Shown: piece after piece, positions 7,250 to 23,703 of the stretch
Position numbering within the stretch: the stretch's first letter is position 1
Layout: each line of letters begins with the position of its first letter
Assembly: GCA_965116845.1 (NCBI GenBank)
Contig: OZ220728.1
Span: forward strand, 3,970,309 to 4,034,308
Source of the DNA: Vicinamibacterales bacterium
GTDB lineage: Bacteria; Acidobacteriota; Vicinamibacteria; Vicinamibacterales; UBA8438
Length of the DNA: 64,000 bases
Direction of reading: 5' to 3'
Made by a program: the position numbers and the translations under genes
Notes under the pieces: generated by a model
What the model saw: the letters and a program-made list of their open reading frames with translations, nothing else
The model's database searches: none
What the model was told of the DNA's origin: nothing

Positions 7250-7274
7250 GGCAGGTCTCCCCTTCCCACGACCG

Positions 7275-8449: not shown

Positions 8450-9031
8450 CTACTCGACCACCTGCACGCGGGTCTCGGCGACCGCCCACGACGAGGCCGG
8501 CATCTGGGCCGTCGCCCGGTTGAGCCCGCGCAGGAACGTCCCTGCCGTCGACGCCAGGACCATCGGTCGCGTCAGCGTGCTCCCCTGGTTGTCGGCGAAG
8601 CCCACGAACGGCTGCCGCGTCACCAGGAACACCACCCGGTCGACCCCCGCCGGCAGCGACGCCCGGATCACGAGGCCGTCGCCCGCACGCGGATACTCCA
8701 CCTGTGCCCCGGCCGCCACCGGCAGGTTCTCCGCCAGCAGCGTCACCCCGCCGTCCGCGTTGACCAGGTAGAGGTGCCCGAAGCCCGCCTCGCTCGACGA
8801 CACCCGGAAGCCGATCGGCGTCCCCACCGCCACCGGCGGCGCCATCGTCGGCGTGACGCCCACCGCGAACGCCGGGGAGTCGTTCGCCGCCACGTCCACC
8901 CCGCCCGCCCCCACCAGCACGCCGTTCCCCGTCGACCGGCAGCCGGCGGCCGCCACCAGAACCAACGCCGATGCCGCCGCCAGCACGCTGGCCCGGGAGG
9001 TCCCGAACCGCGCCACTCCGTATCCGGTCAT
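8450..9031 (-). CDS. DUF4384-like lipoprotein
   Basis: ATG 9031 overlaps the kinase stop (ATGA); lipobox LVAAAGC; FRVSSSEAGFGHLYLVNADGGVTLLAENLP DUF4384-like core. Confidence 0.7.
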   Translation of the reverse strand: MTGYGVARFGTSRASVLAAASALVLVAAAGCRSTGNGVLVGAGGVDVAANDSPAFAVGVTPTMAPPVAVGTPIGFRVSSSEAGFGHLYLVNADGGVTLLAENLPVAAGAQVEYPRAGDGLVIRASLPAGVDRVVFLVTRQPFVGFADNQGSTLTRPMVLASTAGTFLRGLNRATAQMPASSWAVAETRVQVVE

Positions 9032-11892
9032 TGCTCCGCTCCCCCCGTCTTCCCTTCGGCCCTTGTCCACGCACTGACCGAGGCCGTTGCCGCTGTAGAC
9101 GCCGCGGACCCCGAAACCGGACGCGGATCGATGGTCTCCCCCGCGTGCGCCGCCGATGGGTTCGGGTGGAGCGACAGGGGCGCCGGCGGCAGCGAGTCGG
9201 GGACGAGCGTGCGGACGGCCGCCGCCAACGCGCCCGCCGTCGTCGGCCGGGCGGCGGGCGGCGCGGCCAGCATCTCGCCGGCGAACGACAACACCGCCTC
9301 GACGGCGTCCGCGTCGGCCGCGCCCGAGCGGGCGGCCGGCCGCGTCCGCAGCCGCTGGTTGCGGATGGCGTCGACCATCTCCTCGACCGTCGCGCCCGCG
9401 AACGGGCGCCGGCCCGCCACCGTCTCGTACAGCACCACGCCCAGCGCCCACACGTCGTCCGCCGCCCCCGCCGGCCGCCCGCCGAGCGCCTCCGGCGACA
9501 GGTACGCCACCGTGCCCCCGCCCAACGGCCGGCCGCCCCCGCTGATGTCCGCCAGCCCGAAGTCGAGCAGCTTCGGCGTCCCGCGCGACGTGAACCCGAT
9601 GTTGCTCGGCTTCACGTCCCCGTGCCGGTACCCCGCCGCGTGCAGCGCGTCGAGCGCCTCGGCCACCGCCGTCACCACCCACACCGCCGCCCCCGGCGCC
9701 AGGGGCTCGCCCCCCAGGCGCGCCGCCAGCGTGCCCCCGTCGAGGTGCTCCATCACCAGCAGCGGCCGCCCCCGCCACGTCTCGAGGCTGTGGATCTGGG
9801 CGACCCCCGGGTGCGCCGACGCCGCCATCGCCTGCGCTTCCCGCCGCAACTGCGCCAGGCCCGCCGCCGACACGCCGTCCAGCGTCTTGATCGCCACCAC
9901 CCGGTCCAGCCCGATGTCCCGCGCCCGGTACACCGTCCCCATCCCGCCCGCGCCGATGCGCCGCTCCACCGCCAGCTTGCCCGCCACCAGCACCGGAAGC
10001 GGCGCCTCCGCCCACTCGCCTCCGCACGCGTCGCACCGGGCGCCCGCGTCGACCGCCGACGCGACCCGCCCGCACGCCCCGCACGCCCGGGCCGGCGGAG
10101 CCTCCCCGGTCGACCCGGGCTGCCGCAGCCGCGCGAGCGTCAGGCTCGCCGCCCCCGCCAGCGCCTCCAGGAACGACACGTCCACCGGCCGCAGCCGGGC
10201 GCCGTCCGCCCGGCGACCCACCACCAGGAGGCCGGACAGCGTTGCCCCGGACCCGGCAACCGGCACGACCTGCGCCGCCCCCGTCGCCGTCACCCACGCC
10301 GCCTCGCCCGGCGGCAGCAGCTCGAACGCCGTCTGCCGGCCCTCCGGATCGACCAGGAGCGAGCTGCGGATCTCGGCCAGGACGCCGGCCAGCAGCGATG
10401 CGCGCGGCAGGGGAGCGAGCGTCCCGCCGGGCGCCGCGAACCGCTCCTCGGACGCGTCGAGCGCCGCCAGCATCCCGGCCGGCACCCCGGCGCCCTGCCG
10501 CGCCGCGCGCGCGACCGCCGCCTCGACCTCCGCCGCCTCGGTCGCCTGCCCGAGTTCGCCGCCCGCCGCCGCCAGCGCCCGCCGCTGGTCCGCCGTCTCC
10601 GGCGCCACCCACCCGTCCAGGCTCGCGAGCAGACGCTCCCGCCACGCCAGCGCCACCAGCGCCGCGGCCGCGGCCCCCACGCAACCCTGCGACAGCGGGT
10701 CCGCGAGCACCGCGCGCACCGGCACGTCCGCGCGACTCACCAGCAGCGCCGCCAGCGCCGCCAGCGGCCCCGCCGTCAGCACCGCCAGGCCGCCCCGCGT
10801 CAGCAGCCGTCGCGCCGACACCCGCACCGTCGTCCGCACGTCCAGCACCCGCAGCGCGATCGCCGCATACAGCGTCAGGTACGGGACCGCCAGCGCCGAC
10901 ACGCTCCCCAGCACACTCACCCAGTTCGCCGCGGCCACCGTGACCGTCCCCGGGGAGAACACCTCGACCACCCCTTCGACGTGCGGCGCCAGCGCCGCCG
11001 CAATCCCGCCCACGAACAGCAGTGTCCGCGAACGGTCCTCGCGCGCCACGCCCCCGACGCGCAGCAGCAGGACGGCCAGTCCGGCCAGGAGGAAGAGGCA
11101 GTGCGGGCCGAAGAACGCCGGCGCGATGTAGGCGCCCGGAACCTCCCGCGCCAGCACGCCCAGCGATGGGCTCAGCGCCTGCACCGGCGCCAGGTTCGCC
11201 ACCTGCAGCACGCCGCCCACCCCGGCCGCCAGCAGCGCCATGCGCGTCGCCCAGGCGTCGAGCCGCGTCCCCCGCCGGACCCGCGGGAACTCCCGCACGA
11301 ACAGCCAGAAGACGGCCGGCAGGAAGAGCTCCGGGTAGAGGCCCACGCCGAGACCGCCCGCAACCGGCTGCGCCCAGAACGCGCCGAGCAGCACCAGCAC
11401 CGCCCCCAGCAGCCGCGACCGGCGGTCGAACCGGCCGCCCACGTACAGCACCAGCCCGCACACCGGATACAGAACGTGGGGGACGATGCGCAGCAGGAGC
11501 GCCGCCGGCGACAGGTCCTCCACCGGCAGGAAGCCCCGCGCCGACTCGTCCGGGCCCGCCAGCGCGGCCAGCATCCCCTCGGCCGCCGCCGGCAGCAGCG
11601 CCGCTCCCGTGAACAGCCCGACCGCCGACTCGAGCAGGCCGATGGCGACCAGCACCCCGACCGCGCGCCGCGCGAGCCGCGACTCCCGGCCGTCGCGCCC
11701 GGCCCGTCGGCTCGATGCCACCGCCGCCCCCGCGGTGCGGCAGATCCCCTCCAGCGTGCGGAGCTGCGCCAGCGCGCCCCGCTCGGCAGGGTGGGCGCGC
11801 GACGTGCACCGCTCCCAGTCCACCTCCTGGCCGGCGGCGACCGCATCCGCCACCTCCGGCAACAGCCCGCGTCCCCGCGTCTCGCGACTCAC
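9028..11892 (-). CDS. Polytopic membrane Ser/Thr protein kinase (N-terminal multi-TM region, GAF-like middle region, Cys-rich ribbon, C-terminal kinase)
   Basis: GTG 11892 after GGAGGAG; kinase blocks IGAGGMGTVYRA, VVAIKTL, HGDVKPSNIGF (non-RD), LLDFGLA, YLSPE; Cys cluster CGACGRV..ARCDACG before the kinase; about 8-10 hydrophobic segments; paralog at 59626..62391. Confidence 0.88.
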   Translation of the reverse strand: MSRETRGRGLLPEVADAVAAGQEVDWERCTSRAHPAERGALAQLRTLEGICRTAGAAVASSRRAGRDGRESRLARRAVGVLVAIGLLESAVGLFTGAALLPAAAEGMLAALAGPDESARGFLPVEDLSPAALLLRIVPHVLYPVCGLVLYVGGRFDRRSRLLGAVLVLLGAFWAQPVAGGLGVGLYPELFLPAVFWLFVREFPRVRRGTRLDAWATRMALLAAGVGGVLQVANLAPVQALSPSLGVLAREVPGAYIAPAFFGPHCLFLLAGLAVLLLRVGGVAREDRSRTLLFVGGIAAALAPHVEGVVEVFSPGTVTVAAANWVSVLGSVSALAVPYLTLYAAIALRVLDVRTTVRVSARRLLTRGGLAVLTAGPLAALAALLVSRADVPVRAVLADPLSQGCVGAAAAALVALAWRERLLASLDGWVAPETADQRRALAAAGGELGQATEAAEVEAAVARAARQGAGVPAGMLAALDASEERFAAPGGTLAPLPRASLLAGVLAEIRSSLLVDPEGRQTAFELLPPGEAAWVTATGAAQVVPVAGSGATLSGLLVVGRRADGARLRPVDVSFLEALAGAASLTLARLRQPGSTGEAPPARACGACGRVASAVDAGARCDACGGEWAEAPLPVLVAGKLAVERRIGAGGMGTVYRARDIGLDRVVAIKTLDGVSAAGLAQLRREAQAMAASAHPGVAQIHSLETWRGRPLLVMEHLDGGTLAARLGGEPLAPGAAVWVVTAVAEALDALHAAGYRHGDVKPSNIGFTSRGTPKLLDFGLADISGGGRPLGGGTVAYLSPEALGGRPAGAADDVWALGVVLYETVAGRRPFAGATVEEMVDAIRNQRLRTRPAARSGAADADAVEAVLSFAGEMLAAPPAARPTTAGALAAAVRTLVPDSLPPAPLSLHPNPSAAHAGETIDPRPVSGSAASTAATASVSAWTRAEGKTGGAEQ

Positions 11893-11992
11893 CGTCTCCT
11901 CCTGCCTCGGGTGCCCGCACGCCCCATTGCCGGGAGAAGACGTCTGCCCGCGCCGAACCGGACACGGGGCGCCGGCACCGTGCCGACCTCGC

Positions 11993-12604
11993 TCAGGCGT
12001 CCATCTCCTGCGAGAGACGCACCAAGGCCCGCCGTAGCGCCTTGCGCGCCGCTTCCGCGCTGGCCCGCTCGTCCACCAGCGCCAGTTGCCGGAACGAGTA
12101 CCCCAGCTCGGCACGACCCACGATCAGCCGCCGATCGCGCGCCGTCAGCCGTCCCAGCGCCCGCAGGTAGTGCGCCCAGGACTCCCCGTCGATCGCCTGC
12201 TGCAGCGGGGACGGGCCGCCGGCCGGCAGCTCCTCCCCGTCCAGCTCGTCCTGGGGGCCGCGGCGCACCACGCGCCGCATCTCGTCCCGGATGCGGTGGT
12301 CGACCGCACGCAGGAGGTACGCCCGGAACGCCGCGCTGCTCGTCGACTCGAATCCCGTCAGCCGACGCACCGTGTGCAGCAGGACTTCCTGCACGAGGTC
12401 GCTCGTGTCGGCCACCCCTCGCGCCCAGACCGGCAGCCGCCCCCGCGTCCGACGCCGCAGCCACGGGAACCAACGCGCGAACAGCGCCCCCGCCGCCGAA
12501 CGGTCCCCCCGCCGCGCCCGCGCCAGGAGCTCCGACGACCCGGTCGTCGCCGCCGACTCGGCAGGCTGCCTCCCCGCGTGGGCTCGTCTCTCGTCTCCCG
12601 GCAT
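11993..12604 (-). CDS. ECF-type RNA polymerase sigma factor (kinase-associated type)
   Basis: ATG 12604; region 2 DTSDLVQEVLLHTVRRL and region 4 LTARDRRLIVGRAELGYSFRQLAL; paralog at 62388..63041. Confidence 0.85.
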   Translation of the reverse strand: MPGDERRAHAGRQPAESAATTGSSELLARARRGDRSAAGALFARWFPWLRRRTRGRLPVWARGVADTSDLVQEVLLHTVRRLTGFESTSSAAFRAYLLRAVDHRIRDEMRRVVRRGPQDELDGEELPAGGPSPLQQAIDGESWAHYLRALGRLTARDRRLIVGRAELGYSFRQLALVDERASAEAARKALRRALVRLSQEMDA

Positions 12605-12639
12605 CTCCCTGCCTGTGCGACCCGCCGGGAAGACGACCT

Positions 12640-12870
12640 CTCGTCGATCGAGATCCGCCGAAGGGTGTGCAGCAGCGCGTGCTGCTACAACGTCGCTCGT
12701 CTCGGCGAACCGCCGCGCCCAGCCCGGCAGGCGACCGGGCGCCCGCCGCCGCCACGGGAACTGCCGCGCGAACACCGCGTCGACCGCCGAGCGACCCCCT
12801 GCCGCACCCGCTCGAGCAGCGCCGTGGAGGCGGTCGCCTCAGCCGGCCGACTCGGAATGCCGTCTCCCGG
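12640..12870 (-). pseudogene. Diverged partial duplicate of the sigma-factor N-terminus
   Basis: EATASTALLERVRQG../..AVDAVFARQFPWRRRAPGRLPGWARRFAETSDVV parallels SAATTGSSELLARARRGDRSAAGALFARWFPWLRRRTRGRLPVWARGVADTSDLV of the intact gene; frameshifted and truncated. Confidence 0.55.
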
Positions 12871-12910: not shown

Positions 12911-14734
12911 CTAATCCGGCGTCCTCGCCACGCGAAAACCGATGTACGAGGCCCGGCTCTCCGCATCGCCCCTGTCGCGATACGCCGACCGGAGGCTCCA
13001 CGGGCCGTAGAGCCAGGAACCGCCACGAACCACACGACGACTACAGTTCCCGCCCGTCGTCCAGGCCGAGCCGTCCCGCGGCGCCCGCGCGTAGTTCTCG
13101 TGCCAGCAGTCCTCCACCCACTCCCAGACGTTGCCGTGCACGTCGTGCAGGCCCCACGCGTTCGCCGCGAACGACCCCGCCGGAGCCGTCCGATCGTCAT
13201 CCCAGCGGCTGCGGCAACCATCGCAGTTGGCCCGGTTGCGGCCGATGTCGTCCCCCCAGGTGTAGCGCGTCGTCGACCCCGCGCGCGCTGCGTACTCCCA
13301 CTCCGACTCGCTCGGCAGCCGGTACGCCTCCCCCGTCTCCTCGGAGAGCCACGCCGCATACGCGGTCGCGTCCTCCCACGACACGTTCATCACCGGGCGC
13401 CCCCCACGGCCCCAGCCCCCGTCGTTCGGACGGTTCCGGCGCGTCGCCTGGGCGAAGCGGTCGTACTCCTCGAACGTCACCTCGTAGACGCCCAGCGCGA
13501 ACGAGGGCACCTCCACCTCGTGGACCGGCCGTTCGTCGTCCTCGCAGTCCCGCCCCGACACGCAGCCCATCCGGAAGCGCCCCGACGGGACCACCACCAG
13601 CTCCGGACACTCCGGGCAGTCCCGGAACACCGTTCCCGCCTCCCGCTGCTGCGGTCGGTCCGCCCCGGGCCGAGCGGTGGGCCGATCCGCCGACCCACCC
13701 CGCAGCGCCGACAGCCGGTTCGTCGCCAGCGCCCGGAACGTTCCGGCCGGAAACTGCCGCAGGTACGCCTCGAAGTCCGCCGCGCTCTCGCTGTTCACGA
13801 TCGACTGCCAGAACACCGTCTCCTGCTGCGCCAGGACCGTCGCCGACAGCCCGTCCGCCACCGTCACCGTGCCCGGGCCCGACGCGGCCCCCAGGTAGTG
13901 CTCGCCCAGCAGCGACCCGTACTCGTGCGGACGCTGCTCCCCGTCGGTCGCCTCCAGCACCTGCGCCCGCACCCGCCGGAACACGGCGCTCAGTTCCAGC
14001 GGTTGCTCCAGGTACGCCAGCAGCGCCGTCGTGTACGGACTGTTGCGCCCGTCGCCGTCCGCCGCCGTCGTCCCCGCCGCGGCGGCGTACGCCACCAGCG
14101 TCTCCTCCCCCAGCAGCGCCTCGTCCAGCTCCCCGAAGCTCCCCCGGCTCACGCTCCGCGCCGCCCCCGTCCGCTGCATCGACCGGGAGAGCGGGTTGTT
14201 CCGGCACGCGTCCAGGATCACCACCCGCAGCGCCGCCCCCGTCGTCGCCCGCAGCACCCGGTCCAGCGCCAGCGCCTCGTACTCCACGTCCGTGTCCCGC
14301 TCCAGGCGCGCGTCCACCGGCACGAGGTAGTTCACCCCGTCCACCTCCAGACCGTGCCCCGCGTAGAACACCACCGCCACGTCCGCTCCCGCGCTCGAAC
14401 GCGCGAACAGCCGCAACGACTCGTTCATCCCCGCCAGGTCCGCGTCCCGCACCGTCGTCACGTCGAACCCCAACCGCCCCAGCGCCGCCGCCATGTCCGC
14501 CGCGTCGTTCCCCGGGTTCGGCAGCGCCCCGATCGCGGCGTAGGTGCCGTTCCCCACCACCAGTGCTACGCGGCCCGCCGCCAGCGCGACCGGCGACGCC
14601 GCCAGCACCGCCAGCCCCACCAGCACCGAAAGCACCACTGCCCGCCGGAGCCCGATGCGGTGCCCCCGGCCGCACGAAGCGCAGCGTGCCGCTTCCGTCC
14701 GCCCTCCTCTTCGATCGGCACTCTCAGTCCACAT
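12911..14734 (-). CDS. DGR target 1: exported caspase (peptidase C14) - FGE-sulfatase/C-type-lectin fusion
   Basis: ATG 14734 7 nt after AGGAGGAA; hydrophobic leader; caspase dyad FYAGHGLE / ILDACRNNP; FGE domain RLPSESEWEYAARAG, HGNVWEWVEDCW, VVRGGSW; C-terminal 124 nt matches the TR. Confidence 0.92.
   Translation of the reverse strand: MWTESADRRGGRTEAARCASCGRGHRIGLRRAVVLSVLVGLAVLAASPVALAAGRVALVVGNGTYAAIGALPNPGNDAADMAAALGRLGFDVTTVRDADLAGMNESLRLFARSSAGADVAVVFYAGHGLEVDGVNYLVPVDARLERDTDVEYEALALDRVLRATTGAALRVVILDACRNNPLSRSMQRTGAARSVSRGSFGELDEALLGEETLVAYAAAAGTTAADGDGRNSPYTTALLAYLEQPLELSAVFRRVRAQVLEATDGEQRPHEYGSLLGEHYLGAASGPGTVTVADGLSATVLAQQETVFWQSIVNSESAADFEAYLRQFPAGTFRALATNRLSALRGGSADRPTARPGADRPQQREAGTVFRDCPECPELVVVPSGRFRMGCVSGRDCEDDERPVHEVEVPSFALGVYEVTFEEYDRFAQATRRNRPNDGGWGRGGRPVMNVSWEDATAYAAWLSEETGEAYRLPSESEWEYAARAGSTTRYTWGDDIGRNRANCDGCRSRWDDDRTAPAGSFAANAWGLHDVHGNVWEWVEDCWHENYARAPRDGSAWTTGGNCSRRVVRGGSWLYGPWSLRSAYRDRGDAESRASYIGFRVARTPD
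12919..13042 (-). repeat. DGR variable region VR1
   Basis: 124-nt match to TR 15011..15134; by hand 17 substitutions at TR adenines (coding strand) plus 2 silent non-A differences. Confidence 0.9.
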
Positions 14735-14973
14735 CAGCGTTCCTCCTGTTACAACCATCACCCGCACCGCAGCCTTGCTCCGCGGCGCCTGCTCCCCCGC
14801 TCCGGCCGTCACTCGCCGGTCTGCACCGCGAGCGTCGTCCGCCGCACCGAACGGCAGCCGGCGCCCGTCGCCCTCCGCGGTGGGCCAGGACGGGCGCCGG
14901 CCGTGGAGCCGCCGCGGAAGTCCGGCGGCCCCTGCTCAACATGACCGGCCCGGATGGACGCACCCGTGCGCGC

Positions 14974-14997
14974 CCGGCGGGGCCGTGACCCCGCCGG
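14974..14997 (-). other. GC hairpin (9-bp stem, 6-nt loop) just 3' of the TR
   Basis: ccggcgggg ccgtga ccccgccgg; lies 14 nt downstream (minus sense) of the TR end. Confidence 0.6.
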
Positions 14998-15010
14998 CTC
15001 CGGCCGCGGT

Positions 15011-15134
15011 GCGTGCTCGCCACGCGAAAACCGATGTTCGTGTTCCGGTTCTCGGCATCGTTCCTGTTGCGATTCGCCGAACGGAGGTTCCTCGGGTTGT
15101 TGTTCCAGGAACCGCCACGAACCACACGACGACT
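15011..15134 (-). repeat. DGR template repeat (TR)
   Basis: Non-coding copy of the VR starting 9 nt after the RT stop; reads SWNNNPRNLRSANRNRNDAENRNTNIGFRVAS with 9 AAC + 1 AAT codons at the positions that vary in the VRs. Confidence 0.9.
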
Positions 15135-15143
15135 GGGGGCCGG

Positions 15144-16226
15144 TCAGGCCCCCGGGACCGGCCGCCCGCGCGGCGCGAACCACCCGTCCCGGAAGATCGA
15201 GCGGCGCAGACGCCGGGTATCGGCGTGCGCCGCGTGCGCTACCCACGCGCCCACTCGCTGCTCCACCTCCGCCCGCCGCACGCTCCCCGCGCGCCACCGG
15301 TCCCGCAGCCCGCGCAGCCGGCGGCGGAACCGCCGCACGTTCGGCTCCGGCAGCCGCCGGCGGCCCCCGGGCAGCAACACGTACCCGAGGAACTCCGCCG
15401 GCTCCGACGTCCGTGCGATGCGCGTCTTCCGCGGGTGCAACGACAGCCGCCGTCCCGCCAGATACGCGGCCACGCGACCGCGCCAAATCCCGAGCTGCCC
15501 GGCATCGGCGGCGAACAGCGCGAAGTCGTCCACGTAGCGCAGGTACGGCGCCCGCAGCACCTCGGTGACGAAGTGGTCGAACCCGTCGAGGTAGACGTTC
15601 GCGAAGAGCTGGCTCGTCAGGTTCCCGATCGGCAGCCCGCGGCGGCGCTCATAGGGCGTGAACAGGTCGTCGCCGGGATAGTAGTGATGGACCGGCTCCT
15701 GCGGATTCGACCCGTCGATGATCCGGTCGAGCACCGCGAGCGTCCGTCGGCAGGCCACGCGCCGCCGGAGGTCGGCCTTCAGGACTGCGTGGTCGATGGC
15801 CGGGAAGTAGCGCAAGACGTCGCCGCGGAGAACGTAGTCGTGGCGGTCGCGGAAGCGCTCGAACTGACGCACCGCCCGGTGCGTCCCCTTGCCGGTCCGG
15901 TTGGCGTAGCTGTGCGCGATGAAGCCCCGCTCGAACAGCGGCCCCACGACCGCGTGCACGGCGTGGTGCACCACCCGGTCCCGGAACGGCGCCGCCGAAA
16001 CCAGGCGCCGCTTCGGCTCCGTCACCTCGATCTCGACGTAGCGGCCCGGGCGCCAGCTTCCGGCTCGGAGCTCCCGTTCCAGCCGCAGCACCTCCGTCTC
16101 CAGGTTGGCCAGGAACGCCGCCGGCACCGGCGTCCGCCGCTTCCCGGCCACGGCCCGCAAGGCCGCCGGCGCAAGCGCCTCGAACGAGGCGACGGCGTCG
16201 AACAGCCCGTCACGCGCGCGCGGCAT
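15144..16226 (-). CDS. DGR reverse transcriptase
   Basis: 360 aa; IGNLTSQLFANVYL (DGR-type motif 4) and YLRYVDDFALF (YxDD); adjacent to Avd and the TR. Confidence 0.93.
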   Translation of the reverse strand: MPRARDGLFDAVASFEALAPAALRAVAGKRRTPVPAAFLANLETEVLRLERELRAGSWRPGRYVEIEVTEPKRRLVSAAPFRDRVVHHAVHAVVGPLFERGFIAHSYANRTGKGTHRAVRQFERFRDRHDYVLRGDVLRYFPAIDHAVLKADLRRRVACRRTLAVLDRIIDGSNPQEPVHHYYPGDDLFTPYERRRGLPIGNLTSQLFANVYLDGFDHFVTEVLRAPYLRYVDDFALFAADAGQLGIWRGRVAAYLAGRRLSLHPRKTRIARTSEPAEFLGYVLLPGGRRRLPEPNVRRFRRRLRGLRDRWRAGSVRRAEVEQRVGAWVAHAAHADTRRLRRSIFRDGWFAPRGRPVPGA

Positions 16227-16575
16227 CGTGCGCCTGCTGGGTCTTCCGCCAGCCGCCGATCAGCCGGCCCGTCTCGTCGATCGACCGCGCCGCGTGCGCG
16301 TAACGCTGCCCGTCCAGGTGCCGCAGGTCCTTCGCCAGCCGGCACAGGTAGCGCAGCTTCTCGATGCCGAGGTTCGCCGCCGCCAGGTGCGGCCCACGCG
16401 CCCGGGTGTACGTCGCGTCGATCAGCCGCTCCAGCACATCGAGCGCCGTCGCCTGCAGCCGGTCCCCCAGCAGGAACTTCTGGCTCCGCGGGAACCGCTC
16501 CACCGTCGGCACCAGCCACAGCACGAACCGGTACATTGCCTCCAACGCCGGCCCCGTCCGCCGCGCGGCATCCAT
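16210..16575 (-). CDS. avd: Avd-like accessory variability determinant (four-helix-bundle, 23S rRNA-IVS protein family)
   Basis: ATG 16575 after GGAGG; 121 aa, basic and helical (MYRFVLWLVPTVERFPRSQKFLLGDRLQATALDVLERLIDA...); overlaps the RT start by 17 nt. Confidence 0.8.
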   Translation of the reverse strand: MDAARRTGPALEAMYRFVLWLVPTVERFPRSQKFLLGDRLQATALDVLERLIDATYTRARGPHLAAANLGIEKLRYLCRLAKDLRHLDGQRYAHAARSIDETGRLIGGWRKTQQAHDAARA

Positions 16576-16626
16576 CGTCACCTCCGTGCATCTTCCCACC
16601 GCCCGCGTCGCCTGACCGCCCGCGGG

Positions 16627-16660
16627 ACGAAAGAGGTAAGGAGTTGAAGGGACAAAGACC
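16627..16660 (-). repeat. Conserved AT-rich post-stop element (copy 2)
   Basis: acGAAAGAGGTAAGGAgtTGAAGggacAAAGAcc. Confidence 0.55.
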
Positions 16661-18669
16661 TAATCAAGCGTCCTCGCCACGCGAAAACCGATGCGCGCGT
16701 TCCGGGTCTCGGAATCGAAGATGAAGCGATCCGCCGAACGGAGGTCATTCGGGGGAGCACTCCAGGAACCGCCTCGACCCACTCGCCCATTGCAGTTACC
16801 GCCCGTCGTCCACGCCGAGCCGTCGCGCGGGGCCCGCGCGTAGTTCTCGTGCGAGCAGTCCTGGACCCATTCATACACGTTGCCGTGCATGTCGTACAGG
16901 CCCCACGCGTTCGCCGCGAACGAGCCCGTCGGCGCCGTCCGATTCGCGTCGTCCCAGCGGCCCTGACGACCCGCACAGTTCGCTCGGCTGCGGCCGCTGT
17001 CGTCGCCCCAGGTGTACCGCGTCGTCGTCCCCGCGCGCACCGCGTACTCCCACTCCGACTCGCTCGGCAGCCGGTACTCGTCCCCCGTCTCCTCCGAGAG
17101 CCACGCCGCATACGCCGTCGCGTCCTCCCACGACACGTTGATCACCGGGCGCCCCCCGCGGCCCCAGCCCTCGTCGCCGGGCCGTTCCCGGCCCGTCGCC
17201 GCCGCGAAGCCGTCGTATTCCTCGAACGTCACCTCGTACACCCCCAGAGCGAACGACGGCACCTCCACCTCGTGCACCGGGACCTCGTCGTCCTCGCAGT
17301 CGCGTCCCGACACGCAGCCCATCCGGAAGCGACCCGCCGGGATGACCACCAGCTCCGGGCACTCCGGGCAGTCCCGGAACACCTCTCCCGGCTCCCGGGC
17401 CCGAGGCGGGTCCACGACGGCGGGGGCGGGCGCCGCCTCGCGCAGCACCGCCAGCCGGTTCGCCGCCAGCGGCGCGTAGATCCCGCTCGGCCAGCGCGCC
17501 AGGTACGCCTCGAAGTCGGCCGCGTTCGTGCTGTCCCGCATCGACTCCCAGAAGACCGTCTCCGCCCGGGTCAGCTCCGCCACCGGCACGCTCGCCGTCG
17601 CCGGTGGCGCCGCTACGGGGGCCGGGACCGTGGCCGGCGGCGAGGGGGCGGCGGCGGAGAGGGCGGCGGCCGGCACCGGCGCCCCCAGAGCGGCCGCGCC
17701 CACCGCGTCCAGGTACCCGGTCGCCGAAGCGTCCCGCGACGTCTGCCAGCCCCGGATGGCCGCCCGCGTCGCCGGACCGAACACCCCGTCCGCCGGCCCC
17801 GGCGAGAACCCCGCCCGCGTCAGCCCCTGCTGCACCAGCCGCCGCGACGCACGGTCCAGGCCCAGGGCCGCCTCCACCGCGCGCGGCTCCACGCCCGTCG
17901 CCGCGCGCAGGTAGTGCTCCCCCAGCAGCGACGCATACTCGTGCGGGCGCTGACGCCCCTCCGTCGACTCCAGCACCCGCGCCCGAACCTCGCGGAACAG
18001 CAACCCGAGCTCCAGCGGCTGCTCCAGGTACGACAGCAACGCCGACGTGTACGGGCTGTTCCGCCCCGTCCCGTCGTCCGCCGTCGTCCCCGCCGCCGCC
18101 GCATACGCCACCAGCGTCTCGTCCCCCAGCAACGCTTCGTTCAGGTCCCCGAAGCTCCCCCGGCTCACGTTGCGCGACGCCCCCGTCCGCTGCATCGACC
18201 GGGCCAGCGGGTTGTTCCGGCACGCGTCCAGGATCACCACCCGCAGGTCCGCGCCCACCGTCGACGCCAGCACGTCGTCCAGCACCACCGCCTCGAACCG
18301 CACGTCCGTGTCCCGCTCCAGACGCGCGTCGACGGGGACGAGGTAGTTCACGCCGTCCATCTCCAGGCCGTGCCCCGCGTAGAACACCAGGGACACGTCC
18401 GCCCCCGCGCTCTCCCGCGTGAACACCCGCAACGCCTCGGTCATCGCCGCCCGGTCCGCGTCCCGCACCGTCGTCACCTCGAACCCGATGCGGCGCAGCG
18501 CCGCCGTCATGTCCGCCGCGTCGTTCCCCGGGTTCGGCAGCGGCCCGATGTGCGCATACGTGCCGTTGCCCACCACCAGGGCCACCCGGCCGGCGGCGAA
18601 CGCGTCCGGCGGCGACGCCACCAGAACGACCGCCAGCAGCAAGAGGGCGCCGAGCTTCGCAGATCGCAT
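16660..18669 (-). CDS. DGR target 2: exported caspase - peptidoglycan-binding domain - FGE/C-type-lectin fusion
   Basis: ATG 18669; signal peptide MRSAKLGALLLLAVVLVASPPDAFAA; FYAGHGLE / ILDACRNNP; PG_binding_1-like GPADGVFGPATRAAIRGWQ; FGE domain as in target 1; C-terminal VR. Confidence 0.92.
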   Translation of the reverse strand: MRSAKLGALLLLAVVLVASPPDAFAAGRVALVVGNGTYAHIGPLPNPGNDAADMTAALRRIGFEVTTVRDADRAAMTEALRVFTRESAGADVSLVFYAGHGLEMDGVNYLVPVDARLERDTDVRFEAVVLDDVLASTVGADLRVVILDACRNNPLARSMQRTGASRNVSRGSFGDLNEALLGDETLVAYAAAAGTTADDGTGRNSPYTSALLSYLEQPLELGLLFREVRARVLESTEGRQRPHEYASLLGEHYLRAATGVEPRAVEAALGLDRASRRLVQQGLTRAGFSPGPADGVFGPATRAAIRGWQTSRDASATGYLDAVGAAALGAPVPAAALSAAAPSPPATVPAPVAAPPATASVPVAELTRAETVFWESMRDSTNAADFEAYLARWPSGIYAPLAANRLAVLREAAPAPAVVDPPRAREPGEVFRDCPECPELVVIPAGRFRMGCVSGRDCEDDEVPVHEVEVPSFALGVYEVTFEEYDGFAAATGRERPGDEGWGRGGRPVINVSWEDATAYAAWLSEETGDEYRLPSESEWEYAVRAGTTTRYTWGDDSGRSRANCAGRQGRWDDANRTAPTGSFAANAWGLYDMHGNVYEWVQDCSHENYARAPRDGSAWTTGGNCNGRVGRGGSWSAPPNDLRSADRFIFDSETRNARIGFRVARTLD
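16668..16791 (-). repeat. DGR variable region VR2 (more diverged)
   Basis: Same 124-nt register as the TR; many A-site changes, plus non-adenine differences (for example TR AGG vs ATC, GCC vs TCC, GTT vs GGT). Confidence 0.75.
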
Positions 18670-18774
18670 TCTTCCCCTCCCCGTTGCGTCGACGCTCTCA
18701 GAGGAACGCCGTCTCGTCAGTGGTGGCCGCGCCCCGTTTCGAGAGGCCGTCATCGGGACGTCTGTTCCAGGATT

Positions 18775-18830
18775 CCAGTCGATGTAGTACGAGACGCGCG
18801 CCCACCTGTGCGCACCCGCGGCCGAGTTCC
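18775..18830 (-). pseudogene. Short 3' remnant of a trypsin-like protease gene
   Basis: ccagtcgatgtagtacgagacgcgcgcccacctg... reads RVSYYIDW, homologous to the end of 5171..6079 and to 22255..22870. Confidence 0.6.
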
Positions 18831-19090
18831 GGGTTCTTGTCGCGATTCCGTAGCGGACAACGGAGCCCGGTCCGTCAGGACATCGGCGCTGCACGGAGAG
18901 CTTCGAGCGTGGTCAACCGGTGCACCCGGCCGCTCTCGTATGCTGCGCAACCGGACCCATCAACGAACATGGTCGGCATTTCTTGGTGGTTGTCAAGGGT
19001 ACGGCCAGACGGTGTTTCCGCCTTCTTCTACCAATTCGATGGAGCGCGGAAAGCTATATGCCGCAGATTCGGGGTCCGGCTCCCAGAGTC

Positions 19091-19107
19091 ACTACCAATT
19101 AGGTAGT
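19091..19107. promoter_or_regulatory. Palindrome ACTACC-N5-GGTAGT, conserved in three cassette copies
   Basis: actaccaattaggtagt; a half-site ctaccaat lies about 65 nt upstream; copies at 23223..23237 and 29843..29858. Confidence 0.4.
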
Positions 19108-19204
19108 CACAAGAACGGTTGGAGCATCGGGCTGGAAACACGGGCCGAGCGTGCACCCGCGTGCCGTACGAGCTGCTGCGGTCGGTCCCGGCGCCGAAGT
19201 AATG

Positions 19205-19925
19205 AGGCGGGTAACCGGCATTGGGCGAGCACTACGCGTTCGGCGGCATCCTGGCCTCGTTGCACGACGTCATGCTCGGCGATGCCCGCTGGCCATGCTG
19301 TTCCGGACCGGAGGCCAGGACAGCCTGAACCCCCGGCTCGACGGGCCGGACGGCTCCTTCATCACCTGAGGACCTCCGAGACCCCGTCGACGCGGACGGC
19401 TGGGGGGTGTCGCGGATCGCATGGGTCACGAATCTGCTGCCCCACATCCGGCAGTGGCGTCCGTGTCCGGCAGGCGCTCGTACGGGCCGAGGCGCGGCAC
19501 ACGACCGGTCACGGCCCTGCTCGACAACCCGCGGGTCGGCGTCCTCCCACCTGGACCGGCGCGGGCCCGTCCTCGCCGCCAACGAACGCGCCCGACGCAT
19601 CCTCCGGAACGGCGACGGGCTGACGGACCGGGGACGGGATGCTCCCGCACGACGGCCGACCAGGCCCGGCTCGAGCGGATGGTGGGCGACGCGCTGCCGG
19701 GCTCCGGACGGGCTGCGGTCAGCGGGTCGATGCGGCTCCGCCGCTCGCCCGTGTTGCCGCCGTTCGTCGTACACGTCAAGCCCGTGCGCGGCCCGCAGCC
19801 CGACTACGGCGCGCGCCATGTCGCCGCGCTCGTGCTGGTCGTCGAGCCGGGGCGCCAGCATCGCCTCGATCCCGAGCGGGTCGCCACGACGCTCGAGCGG
19901 ACACCGGCGGAGGCTCAGGAGCACG
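19205..19925 (+). pseudogene. Regulator-like pseudogene (copy A), frameshifted with the C-terminus missing
   Basis: Segments GEHYAFGGILASLHDVML / MLFRTGGQDSLNPRLDGPDGSFIT* / TALLDNPRVG / DQARLERMVGDALPGSGRAAVSGSMRLRRSPVLPPFVVHVKPV...AALVLVVEPGRQHRLDPERVATTL in different frames. From memory this resembles the sensory part of a LuxR-type regulator family; no HTH is present. Confidence 0.35.
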
Positions 19926-20020
19926 AACCGGTCACATCGCCTCCAGTGCCGGCCCCGTCCGCCGCGCCGCGTCCCCCGGTCACCTCCCGCTGTGCCCTGG
20001 GGGCTCCGCCCCCAGACCCC

Positions 20021-20052
20021 CGGAAAGAGGTAAAGACCTGAAGAAGAAAGAA
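20021..20052 (-). repeat. Conserved AT-rich post-stop element (copy 3)
   Basis: cGGAAAGAGGTAAAGAccTGAAGaagaAAGAAc. Confidence 0.55.
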
Positions 20053-22158
20053 CTAATCCAGCGTCCTCGCCACGCGAAAACCGATGACCGCGTGCCGGAG
20101 CTCGGCATCGACCCTGCTGCGAAGCGCCGAACGGAGGCTCCTCGGGTTGTCGATCCAGGAACCGCCACGAACCACACGACGACCGCAGTCTCCGCCGCGC
20201 GTCCAGGAGGAGCCGTCGCGGGGAGCACCGTCGTAGTCGTCGTGCCAGCAGTCCTCCACCCATTCCCACACGTTGCCCAGCACGTCGTGCAGCCCGAATG
20301 CGTTCGGGCGATAGGCGCCCACCGGCGACGTCCAGAGAACGCCGTCCGTGCAGTCAGCCACCGTCCAGTTGTCGAAGCGCGCCTCGAACGTCCTGTCTGC
20401 ACCGTTGGCGTACGCGCACCCGTCGTCCGGGTCGTCTCCCCAGTGCCGGCGCGTCGTCGTCCCCGCCCGCGCCGCGTACTCCCACTCTGCCTCGCTCGGC
20501 AGCCGGTACTCCTCCCCGGTCTCCGCGCTCAGCCACTGCACGTACGACTGCGCATCTTCCCAGTTCACGCACACCGCCGGATGGTCCCCGGCTTGCGGAT
20601 ACCCCGGGGAGCGCCACGACGCCTCCGAACGCCACTCCCAGCGCCTCTCGTCGGCGTCGAACGCGTAGCACCGGTCGCCCGCGCCGCGACCCGTCGCCGC
20701 CACAAACGCGGCGTACTCGTCCCGCGTCACCTCGTGCACGCCCAGCGCGAAGCGGTCGACCATCACCCGGTGCCGCGGCCGCTCCAAGTCGTAGCTCTCG
20801 TCGTCCCGCCGGTCCGACCCCATCAGGAACTCGCCCCCCGGCACGATCACCATCTCCGGGCAGGTCGGGCAGTCGCGGAACACCTCTCCTGGCTCCCGCG
20901 ACCGAGGCGGGTCTACCAGCGCCGGCGGGGCGCTCGCGGCCTCGCGCAGCGCCGCAAGGCGGTTCGTCGCCAGCGGCGCGTAGATCCCGCTCGGCCAACG
21001 CGCCAGGTACGCCTCGAAGTCGGACGCGTTCGTGCTGTCCCGCATCGACTCCCAGAAGAGCATCTCCGCCCGGGTCAGCTCCGCCGCCGGCACGCTCGCC
21101 GCCGCCAGCGGCGCCGACACGTCGGCCGGCGAGGTGGCCACGGTCGACAGGGCGGCAGACGGCACCGGCGCCCCCAGCGCCGCAGCCCCCGCAACGTCCA
21201 GATAGCCCGTCGCCGTCGCGCCCCGCGACGTCTGCCAGCCCCGGATCGCCGCCCGCGTCGCCGGACCGAACACTCCGTCCGCCGGGCCCGGCGAGAACCC
21301 CGCCCGCGTCAGCCCCTGCTGCGCCAGACGCCGCGACGCACGGTCCAGGCCCAGGGCCGCCTCCACCGCCCGCGGCTCCGCGCCCACCGCCGCCCGCAGG
21401 TAGTGCTCGCCCAGCAGCGACGCGTACTCGTGCGGACGCTGACGCCCCGCCGTCGCCTCCAGCACGCGCGCCCGCACCTCCCGGAACAGCAACCCGAGCT
21501 CCAGCGGCTGCTCCAGGTACGACAGCAGCGCCGACGTGTACGGGCTGTTCCGCCCCGTCCCGTCGTCCGCCGTCGTCCCCGCCGCCGCCGCATACGCCAC
21601 CAGCGTCTCGTCCCCCAGCAACGATTCGTCCAGGTTCCCGAAGCTCCCCCGGCTCACGCTCCGAGACGCACCCGTGCGTTGCATCGAACGGGCGAGCGGG
21701 TTGTTCCGGCACGCGTCCAGGATCACCACCCGCAGGTCGGCGCCCGTCGTCGACGCCAGCACGTCGTCCAGCTCGATCGCCTCGAACCGCACGTCCGTGT
21801 CCCGTTCCAGCCGCGCGTCGACTGGGACCAGGTAGTTCACCCCGTCCATCTCCAGGCCGTGACCCGCGTAGAACACCAGGGACACGTCCGCCCCCGCGCT
21901 CTCGCGCGTGAAGACCCGCAGCGCCTCCGCCAGCGCGTTCCGGTCCGCATCCCGGACCGTCGTCACGTCGAACCCGAGGCGGCGCAGCGCCGCCGTCATG
22001 TCCGCCGCGTCGTTCCCCGGGTTCGGCAGCGGCCCGATGTGCGCATACGTGCCGTTGCCCACCACCAGCGCCACCCGGCCGGCGGCGAAGGCGCCCGGCG
22101 GCGACGCCACCAGAACGAACGCCAGCAGCCAGAGGGCGCCGAGCTTCGCAAATCGCAT
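20053..22158 (-). CDS. DGR target 3: exported caspase - peptidoglycan-binding domain - FGE/C-type-lectin fusion (divergent FGE scaffold)
   Basis: Signal peptide MRFAKLGALWLLAFVLVASPPGAFAA; caspase and PG-binding parts nearly identical to target 2; different FGE scaffold (FALGVHEVTRDEYAAF, HPAVCVNWEDAQSY, LGNVWEWVEDCW); C-terminal VR. Confidence 0.92.
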   Translation of the reverse strand: MRFAKLGALWLLAFVLVASPPGAFAAGRVALVVGNGTYAHIGPLPNPGNDAADMTAALRRLGFDVTTVRDADRNALAEALRVFTRESAGADVSLVFYAGHGLEMDGVNYLVPVDARLERDTDVRFEAIELDDVLASTTGADLRVVILDACRNNPLARSMQRTGASRSVSRGSFGNLDESLLGDETLVAYAAAAGTTADDGTGRNSPYTSALLSYLEQPLELGLLFREVRARVLEATAGRQRPHEYASLLGEHYLRAAVGAEPRAVEAALGLDRASRRLAQQGLTRAGFSPGPADGVFGPATRAAIRGWQTSRGATATGYLDVAGAAALGAPVPSAALSTVATSPADVSAPLAAASVPAAELTRAEMLFWESMRDSTNASDFEAYLARWPSGIYAPLATNRLAALREAASAPPALVDPPRSREPGEVFRDCPTCPEMVIVPGGEFLMGSDRRDDESYDLERPRHRVMVDRFALGVHEVTRDEYAAFVAATGRGAGDRCYAFDADERRWEWRSEASWRSPGYPQAGDHPAVCVNWEDAQSYVQWLSAETGEEYRLPSEAEWEYAARAGTTTRRHWGDDPDDGCAYANGADRTFEARFDNWTVADCTDGVLWTSPVGAYRPNAFGLHDVLGNVWEWVEDCWHDDYDGAPRDGSSWTRGGDCGRRVVRGGSWIDNPRSLRSALRSRVDAELRHAVIGFRVARTLD
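20061..20184 (-). repeat. DGR variable region VR3
   Basis: By hand about 15 substitutions vs the TR, all at TR adenines (coding strand) apart from the G/C switch in the last 5 nt. Confidence 0.9.
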
Positions 22159-22254: not shown

Positions 22255-22870
22255 CAGGATCCAGTCGATGTAGTACGAGACGCGCGCCCACCTGCGCGCA
22301 CCCGCGGCCGAAGCTGACGACGCCGAGCTGCGTCCAGCCCGTCGGCCCGCCCGGCACCACCAGCGGACCGCCGCTGTCCCCCCTGGCACGAGTCCAGCGC
22401 GTCCCTGCTCGTACCCCGCGCACCCCTGGCCGTCCGTGACCGCTGACAGCCGTAGCGCTCAGCGCAGGTCGCGTTGTCGATCACCGGCAGGTCCCACCGC
22501 GCGCAGGCGGTCCGGCAGGGCGCGCGCCGCCACGCGGTACCGTCCCTGTTCCCACGCCGCCGCGCGCCCCCACCGGTCGCCACCGCGCACGCGCCCGGGC
22601 CGAGGTTCGCCTCGATCTGCCCCGACTGCAGCTGCACCGTCTCGAAACCGCGACACCGGCAACGGCGACGACAGCCGGACGAGCGCGATGTCGTTCCCCT
22701 CGTCCGCAGATGCTGCCGAAGGCGTTCGCGTTCCCCGCCATCCCCAGGCTTGGCGTCAAGTTGACTCCCAGCTCCTGGCTCATATCGAGTCCGCCCCCGG
22801 ACTGGGCTCGGACCTCACCCGCGGCGAGGGCCCACAGGACCGCCAACGACCGCCCCCGCTGCGGCGCCGG
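22255..22870 (-). pseudogene. Trypsin-like protease pseudogene (internal deletion plus frameshifts)
   Basis: GDSGGPLVVPGGPTGWTQLGVVSFGRGCAQ, IDNATCAE and a signal-like LAVLWALAAGEVRAQ in different frames; nucleotide-level homology to 5171..6079. Confidence 0.75.
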
Positions 22871-23222
22871 CCGCCGCTCCCCTCAGGAAGCCGCGCCGGT
22901 CGACCGTCGTCGAGCTCGCCGCCACCTTCTGCACGGACAGTTCTCCACCTGTGGAGTTCCGGGTTCTTGTCCCGATTCCGTAACGGAAAACGGAGCCCGG
23001 TCAGTCAGGACATCGGCGCTGCACGGAGAGCTTCGAGCGTGGGTCAACCGGTGCACCCGGCCGCTCTCGTAGGCTGCGCAGCCGGACCCATCAACGAAAC
23101 ATGGTCGGCATTTCCTGGTGGTTGTCAAGGGTACGGCCAGACGGTGTTTCCGCCTTCTTCTACCAATTCGATGGAATGCTGAGGCTATATGCCGCAGATT
23201 TGGTCTCGGCTCCCCCGAGTCC

Positions 23223-23237
23223 CTACCGATTTGGTAG
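23223..23237. promoter_or_regulatory. Palindrome CTACC-N5-GGTAG (copy 2)
   Basis: ctaccgatttggtag in the duplicated leader block. Confidence 0.35.
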
Positions 23238-23703
23238 TCGCAAGAACGGCTGGAGCATCGGGCTGGAAACACGGGCTGAGCGTGCATCAGCGTGCCGTAC
23301 GAGCGCTGGGGTCGGTCCCGGCAACGAAGAATGAGGCGGGTCACCAGCAGGGGCGAGCACGACGCGGTCGGCGGCATCCGGGCCTCGTTGCACGACGTCA
23401 TGCTCGACGATGTCCGCTGGCCTGACCGGAAACGACGGCCGCGAGGCCCCTGGCGACGGCCGAGTGCTCGTCGGGGCCATCTTGCTCACCGGCGTCCGCG
23501 AGGGCCTTCGGAACACGGATCCTGCGCCCAAAGAACCGACCACGGACGCACGTGGCGAGATCCCGGCTCCGGCGAAGTTCCCCGCGGTTGACAGAACCCG
23601 TCTCATCGGACGCCCGCGCGCCGATAACCGAACAAGCCGGATAGAGGCCGCCATCCTAAAGGCTCCCAACAGCCGGCAGATGTTCTAACCCATGCCCCAT
23701 CAC

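Follow-up and report, generated by a model that had tools for sequence, protein, structure and literature searches.

A stretch of 64,000 nucleotides from a Vicinamibacterales bacterium (contig OZ220728.1; hereafter the window) contains four in-register copies of a sequence of ~123 nt, which a repeat search of the window places at 12919-13041, 15011-15133, 16668-16790, and 20061-20183. Three of them lie at the 3' ends of genes and one is non-coding, which raises the question of whether the latter is a template from which the others are diversified and, if so, whether all three are still being rewritten. The locus is very probably a chromosomal diversity-generating retroelement (DGR) of the avd-RT-TR type, with three paralogous targets, in a Vicinamibacterales-like acidobacterium. 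It holds all the hallmarks of such elements: Avd, a reverse transcriptase (RT), a template repeat (TR) that immediately follows the RT stop codon, and an RNA structure around the TR that is supported by covariation. All parts are on the minus strand, avd and RT sit between the second variable region (VR2) and the TR, and the targets flank the avd-RT-TR core on both sides.

The TR (15011-15134, IMH* at 15011-15035) starts 10 nt past the RT stop codon, beside avd. Of its 29 adenines, 26 fall within the mutagenised span, and 10 of its codons are AAC or AAT. VR1 (12919-13042, IMH 12919-12943), VR2 (16668-16791, with an intact IMH at 16668-16692), and VR3 (20061-20184, IMH 20061-20085) form the 3' ends of the target genes T1, T2, and T3, respectively, and span the last ~40 codons of their FGE-sulfatase domains. 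Each was compared with the TR on the coding (minus) strand, ungapped and in a 124-nt register, with a hypergeometric P for mismatches at TR adenines. VR3 has 16 mismatches, 15 at TR adenines and a C-to-G change at position 120 (P = 1.4e-10). VR1 has 19, of which 16 are at adenines, the others being T54G and C81G (both silent) and C120G (P = 8e-10). VR2 has 29, 15 at adenines and 14 elsewhere (P = 1e-4). The spectra are A-specific, and highly significantly so for VR1 and VR3. A preliminary description of this DNA had counted by hand ~15 differences in VR3, all at adenines, and ~17 at adenines in VR1 plus two silent ones elsewhere; the first count holds apart from position 120, the second becomes 16 with the two silent changes retained, and the peptides that it quoted for TR, VR1, VR2, and VR3 are all reproduced exactly. 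It was also right that the last ~20 nt are invariant: across the 64-kb window there are exactly four occurrences of the 20-mer ATCGGTTTTCGCGTGGCGAG (0 expected by chance), and the next base is G in every VR and C in the TR, this being the only difference within a 25-nt IMH block shared by all four copies. Its reading of this base as IMH versus IMH* agrees with the recurrence of C (TR) versus G (VR) in related cassettes of other genomes. The difference would be the source of directionality found in DGRs.

Purifying selection does not explain this pattern, since the identity between VR1 and VR3 at TR non-A sites (97.9%) is far above that in the 122 nt immediately upstream (79.5% overall, 60% at its third codon positions), and VR3 agrees with the TR at 40/40 third-codon non-A sites. 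Homogenisation thus exceeds the reach of selection. Both VR1 and VR3 were clearly rewritten from the TR of the window.

The two proteins encoded between VR2 and the TR bear out the earlier interpretation of the locus as a DGR. The product of avd (16210-16575, 121 aa) scores 101.6 bits against the DGR-Avd equivalog NF033474 DivGenRetAVD of NCBIfam (cut-off 80) and matches Pfam bAvd (PF22296) at 1.5e-17. The RT (15144-16226, 360 aa) has an RVT_1 match, and its translation holds LPIGNLTSQ, of the IGxxxSQ type, and YVDD. The I/LGxxxSQ motif is diagnostic for RTs of the DGR clade, which are group-II-intron-like and have YxDD. Among solved structures, the RT matches best the 8ub7-8ube RT series (328 aa, E = 1.9e-41), which we take to be the Bordetella bRT, and group II intron RTs rank below it. 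The identity with a Bordetella phage RT is ~35%.

[quoted passage not shown] T3 (20053-22158, 701 aa) has an N-terminus, MRFAKLGALWLLAFVLVASPPGAFAAG, that by inspection is a signal peptide, followed by a Peptidase_C14 orthocaspase domain (5.6e-37), PG_binding_1 (2.1e-14), and an FGE-sulfatase/C-type-lectin domain (9.6e-65). T2 (16660-18669, 669 aa) has the same Pfam architecture and is a mosaic in windowed identities, its N-terminal part being T3-like and its FGE domain T1-like. T1 (12911-14734, 607 aa) has a signal or anchor sequence, Peptidase_C14, and FGE-sulfatase, and no PG_binding_1 domain in Pfam. Peptidase_C14 matches range from 1e-35 to 1e-37 across the three targets, all of which conserve the motifs FYAGHG and ILDACRNN. 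From known caspase motifs, we assign these to a predicted p20-like His-Cys catalytic dyad. T3, the only target searched against structures, matches TvpA, a DGR target of Treponema denticola (2y3c, E = 5e-7). The link to FGE is a match at the level of the fold (PF03781; PvdO and FGE structures), and published DGR targets of FGE-sulfatase type are thought to be binding domains (PMC5758913). Downstream of VR3 lies a remnant of the 5' end of avd (19920-19987; 68 nt, 87% identity to the avd start), with a tblastn match of 100% to Avd residues 2-14. It is left over from the segmental duplication through which T3 arose. The neighbouring genes code for an ECF sigma factor, a Ser/Thr kinase, DUF4384 proteins, and an OmpA protein.

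The RNA 3' of the TR (14933-15020, Sp-like) is structured according to alifold and covariation. It includes a duplex at the 3' end of the TR (15016-15008 with 14964-14955), a hairpin (14997-14974), the 3' strand (14951-14944) of a long-range duplex, and a CATGtTGAG motif (14943-14935). The 5' strand of the long-range duplex, ACCGGCCC (15137-15144), overlaps the RT stop codon, so that the duplex brackets the TR; 97% of its cells are paired and 6/8 pairs have compensatory changes in 27 genomes. For the three helices together, in the same number of genomes, 95.2% of cells are paired (35-42% with partners slid), and both-side changes occur in 18/30 pairs; 0/500 shuffles came up to the observed value. 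A covariance model of the TR-flanking RNA has a single match in the window (83 bits), and the element is still 3' of the TR in relatives whose TR sits upstream of the RT. The Bordetella RNP likewise contains TR:Sp and avd:Sp duplexes along with a stem-loop (bioRxiv 10.1101/2023.10.23.563531), and the three helices may be the counterparts of its template-primer duplex, stop duplex, and stem-loop. No conserved hairpin of the kind present in the Bordetella target turned up immediately 3' of the VRs at this locus. The conserved RNA ends in a GC-rich, terminator-like stem-loop (14847-14902), conserved in the alignment, that a simple terminator scan did not flag. In relatives, this stem-loop is followed by a T-run, which is weak in the window.

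The cassette also occurs in related Vicinamibacterales genomes, where the number of VRs ranges from 1 to 4. In nine such cassettes, the TR comes directly after the RT, and 8/9 have a VR within the locus, none being found there in L004. Except in L003, where 6/22 differences are at non-A or gapped positions, the VRs differ from their own TR at adenines and the IMH position only, and the polarity of the latter is the same (G/C or G/T in VR/TR). The Vicinamibacterales MAGs L001 (CBDBMW010000013.1) and L080 (ERZ25072076 ctg246076) resemble the window in target family, TR (92-96% identity, adenines conserved), and synteny of the downstream sigma-kinase-DUF4384-OmpA genes; the RT of L001 is 89% identical to that of the window, and the RT of L080 is in the same 90%-identity cluster. 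They differ in the number and placement of VRs, L001 having two and L080 four, one of them outside any called gene. The L080 TR is 96% identical to that of the window with every adenine conserved, and the identity between T1 and its orthologue there is 93.7% ahead of the VR, likewise 93.7% at non-A sites within the VR, and 44.8% at its A sites. Compared as proteins, T1 orthologues differ mainly in VR1. In a metagenome strain whose flanking genes are 96% identical, a VR differs from the window TR at 18 A sites. From strain to strain, it is at the A sites that the VRs vary.

In the preliminary description, one TR serves all three VRs. This is secure for VR1 and VR3 and uncertain for VR2, which looks partly decayed: its non-A mismatches include 6 within the 5' homology arm (positions 2-18) and another 7 within the core (positions 33-79). 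With 14 non-A mismatches, half of them inside the mutagenised core, VR2 has not been fully overwritten for a long time, and it has been recently rewritten in its 3' third at most. We lean slightly towards VR1 and VR3 being the only genuine current targets, with VR2 either an escaped former target or one rewritten over its 3' third only, via an internal crossover. The distribution of its mismatches agrees with this, differences from position 80 up to the IMH (positions 80-119) being at adenines only. In L001 and L080, the orthologous upstream VR has A-site changes only, which makes the decay specific to the window genome, and VRs of a single DGR are known to differ in their 5' boundaries and in activity (PMC5758913; PMC10907252). 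However, VR2 shares its IMH and the surrounding 25 nt with VR1 and VR3, its 15 A-site changes are still a significant enrichment (P = 1e-4), and its host gene T2 is intact.

It is unlikely that the cassette as a whole is a relic that once diversified VR1 and VR3 and is now inactive or crippled by a lesion in its self-priming RNA, with VR2 drifting. The RNA of the window has two changes that could impair priming. One is a UCC insertion (14954-14952), shared by 0/31 relatives and absent from L001 and L080, at the position matching the short linker that in Bordetella joins the template-primer duplex to the stop duplex, a conformationally sensitive region in which only two nucleotides separate the duplexes (bioRxiv 10.1101/2023.10.23.563531). 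The other is an A-to-T change in the near-invariant motif CATGATGAG, with A in 30/32 sequences. In addition, the covariance-model score is ~10 bits below the 92-95 bits of the closest relatives, and VR2 has 14 non-A mismatches and VR1 has 2. Yet all three helices can still form in the window copy, L040 likewise lacks the A in CATGATGAG, and the RT and avd reading frames are intact, with 80-89% identity to many relatives. The absence of non-A mismatches in VR3 (IMH position aside), together with its match to the TR at all 40 silent non-A sites, argues for recent homing.

That there is no retroelement, the four repeats being paralogous sequence whose similarity is maintained by gene conversion and purifying selection while binding residues undergo ordinary positive selection, has a negligible probability: T1-T3 are indeed recombining paralogues, as the mosaic T2 indicates, and the hypervariable codons are lectin-fold surface positions where positive selection is plausible, but this explanation is effectively refuted by a fourth copy that is non-coding and placed just past the RT stop codon beside avd, by differences that fall on TR adenines (P ~1e-10) while silent non-A sites are identical, and by the recurrence of the same pattern in independent genomes.

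The DGR of the window shares with the prototype, that of Bordetella phage BPP-1 (mtd-avd-TR-brt), the RT and Avd, a TR/VR pair with adenine-specific changes, the one-base IMH/IMH* difference at the 3' end, a VR in a C-terminal C-type-lectin fold, and a set of a TR-3'-end duplex, a stem-loop, and a duplex joining sequences upstream and downstream of the TR. It differs in core order (avd-RT-TR instead of avd-TR-RT), in having three chromosomal targets instead of one phage tail-fibre gene, in the FGE-sulfatase subtype of its lectin domain, and in an RT of only ~35% identity; the covariance model of its RNA has no match in the Bordetella phage locus. The same core order is found in the multi-target DGRs of architecture B2 with FGE-sulfatase/CLec1 targets (Wu et al. 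2018, PMC5758913). [quoted passage not shown] Acidobacteriota and Vicinamibacterales are absent from its text, and the window departs from its B2 elements in that its targets flank the core, and in the origin of one of them by a recent segmental duplication that includes an avd remnant. The TvpA DGR of Treponema denticola also has a variable protein with an FGE-sulfatase-type C-type lectin and one TR for several targets, but that clade has another accessory gene, architecture C (HRDC), and remote targets, and TvpA lacks the caspase domain. Two further systems, the cyanobacterial variable proteins with an N-terminal orthocaspase (Vallota-Eastman et al. 2020, PMC7517822) and the multi-target DGRs of Thiohalocapsa PB-PSB1 (Dore et al. 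2024, PMC10907252), resemble the window in the fusion of a caspase-type peptidase to a DGR-diversified CLec domain, in paralogous targets, and in VR activity that is unequal within one locus. In contrast to these systems, the targets of the window carry N-terminal signal peptides, two have a peptidoglycan-binding domain, and STAND NTPase, MoxR, or vWA components were not observed. The multi-target layout, the avd-RT-TR order, and the caspase-lectin targets have each been published already, and the element is a real but ordinary DGR.

By analogy with the Bordetella phage DGR, from which we infer the priming site, the stop, and the homing steps, as well as a putative present-day activity of the element, the complex of RT and Avd would bind the transcript holding the TR and its flanking structured RNA. 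Synthesis of cDNA would be self-primed from the RNA that immediately follows the TR, start inside IMH*, traverse the 124-nt TR with misincorporation opposite adenines, and stop at the duplex in which the 8 nt before the TR are paired with the RNA after it. Guided by the IMH, the adenine-mutagenised cDNA would then take the place of the homologous 3' end in a target gene. The peptidoglycan-binding domain in two of the three targets suggests a role in the envelope. On the ligand-binding surface of the lectin, as many as 16 codons would be rewritten in this way, for ~1e15 possible peptides.

A repeat search of the window returns four in-register copies of a ~123-nt unit (12919-13041, 15011-15133, 16668-16790, and 20061-20183), and all features of the diversity-generating retroelement (DGR) lie on the minus strand. 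The adenine-rich copy (15134..15011, with 29 A and ten AAC/AAT codons) is the template repeat (TR), and the other three are variable regions (VRs) at the 3′ ends of the paralogous target genes T1, T2, and T3. Pairwise TR/VR alignments, ungapped and in a 124-nt register on the coding (minus) strand, give adenine-biased substitution spectra in all three cases (hypergeometric P). VR3 (20184..20061) has 16 mismatches to the TR, 15 of them at TR adenines, plus C120G (P = 1.4e-10). VR1 (13042..12919) has 19, 16 of them at adenines, the remainder being the silent T54G and C81G, and C120G (P = 8e-10). VR2 (16791..16668) has 29, 15 at adenines and 14 elsewhere (P = 1e-4). The preliminary description had proposed one TR serving VRs in three paralogous genes, with about 15 differences in VR3, all at TR adenines; the copies and their spectra bear this out, and the peptides that it gave for the TR and VRs are all reproduced exactly. 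Its two silent non-A changes in VR1 stand, but the adenine changes, put at about 17, number 16. It had also described an invariant 3′ block of ~20 nt followed by G in the VRs and C in the TR (IMH and IMH*, respectively). The 20-mer ATCGGTTTTCGCGTGGCGAG indeed has four copies in the window, against zero expected, and the next base is C in the TR copy and G in all three gene copies. A search of the window for the IMH with up to three mismatches returns only these four copies, and thus no further VR.

Read 5′ to 3′ on the minus strand, the cassette consists of T3 (22158..20053, ending in VR3), an avd remnant, a duplicated noncoding block, T2 (18669..16660, carrying VR2), the accessory gene avd (16575..16210), the reverse transcriptase (RT) gene (16226..15144), the TR, a structured RNA, and T1 (14734..12911, carrying VR1). 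The TR starts 10 nt past the RT stop codon, and the conserved structured RNA between the TR and T1 spans about 165 nt. The avd-RT-TR core order corresponds to Architecture B2 (Wu et al. 2018, PMC5758913), and in that catalogue about 15% of DGRs have several targets, with a maximum of eight. The remnant downstream of VR3 is just 68 nt of the avd 5′ end (19987..19920, minus strand, with 13 codons identical), and no second RT or TR follows it; hence, either T3 arose when a unit reaching into the beginning of avd was duplicated, or a deletion removed a second cassette. A block of ~470 nt occurs upstream of both T2 (18824-19294) and T3 (22954-23422), with 91% identity, which is above that of the adjacent coding DNA. 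It has a lower GC content (63%) and small palindromes (CTACCTAATTGGTAG), lacks a conserved ORF, is absent in related loci, and is treated here as a duplicated noncoding or pseudogene segment. Also upstream of T3 is a frameshifted pseudogene of a trypsin-like serine protease (22312-22953, minus strand; DSCQG.DSGGPL, GVVSFGRGCA), of which only the 3′ tail is found upstream of T2 (18750-18825, minus strand); L080, a sister Vicinamibacterales cassette, has an intact trypsin gene nearby. A promoter and terminator scan of the 12.7-23.6 kb region gave nothing informative.

With 101.6 bits, the Avd protein exceeds the DGR-Avd equivalog cut-off of NCBIfam, which is 80. The RT is an RVT_1 protein in Pfam, with the motifs LPIGNLTSQ and YVDD, and its best match among solved structures is a 328-aa RT (entries 8ub7-8ube, E = 1.9e-41), with group II intron RTs behind. 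These entries, labeled only as "Reverse transcriptase", are presumably the Bordetella bRT-Avd-RNA complexes. The three targets each combine Peptidase_C14 and FGE-sulfatase domains, to which T2 and T3 add PG_binding_1, and all three retain the caspase His/Cys motifs FYAGHG and ILDACRNN. By inspection, their N-termini look like signal peptides (e.g., MRSAKLGALLLLAVVLVASPPDAFA/AG). FGE-sulfatase CLec proteins are the largest class of DGR targets, some of them with protease domains (Wu et al. 2018, PMC5758913), and cyanobacterial DGR variable proteins with orthocaspase domains have been described (PMC7517822). T2 is a recombinant mosaic, with 92-94% identity to T3 over its first ~450 residues and 80-90% identity to T1 over its C-terminal FGE domain; segments are thus exchanged among the target paralogues. 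Two additional caspase-domain fragments, at 29273-29572 (minus strand) and 30681-31333 (plus strand), share 51-66% identity with T3, look frameshifted, and contain no FGE domain, VR, or IMH.

The ~90 nt 3′ of the TR are strongly conserved across phyla, and three helices are backed by RNAalifold and by explicit pair counts. Helix 1 is an 8-bp long-range duplex of ACCGGCCC (15144..15137, overlapping the RT stop codon) with GGGCCGGT (14951..14944), paired in 97% of cells and with compensatory changes in 6/8 pairs. Helix 2 joins the last bases of the TR, GCACGCACC (15016..15008), to GGTGCGTCC (14964..14955), and helix 3 is an extensively covarying hairpin of 11 bp (14997..14974). Taken together, pairing holds in 95.2% of cells, versus 35-42% when the partners are slid, and both sides have changed in 18/30 pairs; none of 500 shuffles reached the observed values. 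The helices bracketing the TR are present throughout the RT clade, in Acidobacteriota, Proteobacteria, Binatia, and Nitrospirales. A covariance model trained on these RNAs has a single hit in the window (83 bits) and one after every TR in relatives outside the training set, including cassettes with the TR upstream of the RT. Some distant relatives have two TR-plus-RNA copies within 7 kb (L074, 4787-4898 and 11175-11286; L054, 4587-4671 and 11194-11278), pointing to DGR cores in tandem or to a spare TR. A scan of the whole window at Rfam gathering thresholds gave zero matches; hence, the TR-flanking RNA belongs to no curated family.

The Bordetella ribonucleoprotein contains a TR:Sp template-primer duplex (Sp being the RNA 3′ of the TR), an avd:Sp "cPRT Stop" duplex, and an Avd-binding stem-loop, and such RNA elements were predicted in 207 other DGRs (bioRxiv 10.1101/2023.10.23.563531). 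The layout in the window, with its TR-end duplex, long-range duplex, and hairpin, runs parallel to this. The covariance model has no match in the Bordetella phage locus, so that homology to the Bordetella Sp rests on analogous architecture and not on sequence. The helices bracket exactly the stretch of TR-VR homology, and these positions fit a cDNA synthesis that would start inside IMH* and stop at the 5′ edge of the TR. With such a start, the C/G difference would never be transferred. The Bordetella target has a hairpin or cruciform next to its VR. A search for a conserved counterpart directly downstream of each VR of the window found no shared structure; the DNA folds after VR1 and VR2 are no better than those of shuffles. 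The only feature common to the VRs is a pyrimidine-rich stretch, ~35 nt long, that follows the stop codon.

Homologues of the RT number in the thousands, the closest (79-89% identical) coming from metagenome-assembled genomes of Vicinamibacterales (Acidobacteriota); the window proteins themselves are encoded on a 5.56-Mb contig. In nine related Vicinamibacterales cassettes the TR directly follows the RT, and eight of these have a VR within the fetched locus, none being found in that of L004. VR-TR differences lie only at adenines and at the G-versus-C (or G-versus-T) IMH position in all but L003, where 6/22 are at non-A or gapped positions. L001 has two VRs, one on either side of the core, and L006 has two, both upstream. 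L080, whose TR is 96% identical to that of the window with all adenines kept, has four, one of which is outside any called gene. This fourth copy (5455-5578) departs from the TR of L080 at two or three non-A sites and is probably the leftover of a disrupted target. Between T1 and its orthologue in L080, identity is 93.7% ahead of the VR; within the VR it is 93.7% at the non-A sites and 44.8% at the adenine-aligned sites, and the change in the protein alignment is concentrated at the same sites. Scanning metagenomes for VR variants, with every A site set to N, yielded a single contig, MKWU01014167.1, which represents a related strain and not population data. Its downstream sigma and kinase genes are 96% identical to those of the window, and its VR has 18 adenine-site differences from the window TR. 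These strain comparisons are the nearest substitute for the population test that the preliminary description had called for, and they agree with adenine-directed hypermutation.

In Thiohalocapsa, the VRs of a single locus are described as unequally active (PMC10907252). VR2 has six non-A mismatches in its 5′ arm and seven in its core, so any complete overwriting of it lies far back; between position 80 and the IMH it differs at adenine sites only, and at best it would have been rewritten in its 3′ third. The VR2 orthologues in L001 and L080 are clean. The RNA of the window carries three extra nucleotides, UCC (14954..14952), which separate helix 2 from helix 1 and are found in 0/31 aligned relatives. 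At 14939, within the near-invariant motif CATGATGAG, it has T in place of the A seen in 30/32 sequences; both changes could affect the self-priming of cDNA synthesis. Both RT and avd are intact genes, and at non-A sites VR3 matches the TR perfectly; that the element is a recently inactivated relic is considered unlikely. Selection alone is insufficient to explain the identity between VRs and TR, since VR1 and VR3 are 97.9% identical at TR non-A sites versus 79.5% over the immediately preceding 122 nt (60% at the third codon positions of that stretch), and VR3 equals the TR at 40/40 third-position non-A sites. Gene conversion plus selection without an RT is rejected in view of the substitution spectrum and the silent-site identity.

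Downstream of T1, the minus strand encodes an ECF-type sigma factor (11993-12775), followed by a protein of 1028 aa whose C-terminal domain is a Ser/Thr kinase (9028-12114). Next come a protein in which the DUF4384 domain occurs twice (7275-9074), a member of the OmpA family (6731-7414), and a second DUF4384 protein (6109-6942). This arrangement (6109-12775) is syntenic in L080. Two IS110-family transposase genes (DEDD_Tnp_IS110 + Transposase_20) are at the cluster edge (1644-2753 and 3074-4408, minus strand). The targets might form a secreted, cell-wall-anchored orthocaspase array with DGR-reprogrammed lectin tips, as opposed to cytoplasmic "antigen sensors", tied to the adjacent sigma factor, membrane kinase, DUF4384, and OmpA genes in an envelope ligand-triggered protease/signaling system peculiar to Vicinamibacterales, with paralogues differentially kept under hypermutation (VR1 and VR3, maintained) or released from it (VR2, drifting). 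We regard this reading as doubtful.

In conclusion, all the defining DGR features that can be tested in silico were found, and the locus is a correctly read, ordinary multi-target DGR, a little unusual in its host lineage, in the apparent secretion and peptidoglycan-binding domains of its targets, and in its gene neighborhood. It adds a well-resolved multi-target DGR from Acidobacteriota (Vicinamibacterales), a soil and sediment phylum scarcely treated in the searchable DGR literature, and a clean comparative series in which one and the same TR is accompanied by 1 to 4 VRs across sister genomes, showing that target genes duplicate, recombine, and vanish faster than the RT-Avd-TR core. The helix covariation around the TR supports the generality of the Bordetella self-priming and stop mechanism across distant DGRs. 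Knowledge of how DGRs work is unchanged by the locus, and its real potential for discovery is limited to the biology of the targets, i.e., secreted caspase-lectin fusions beside sigma and kinase genes.
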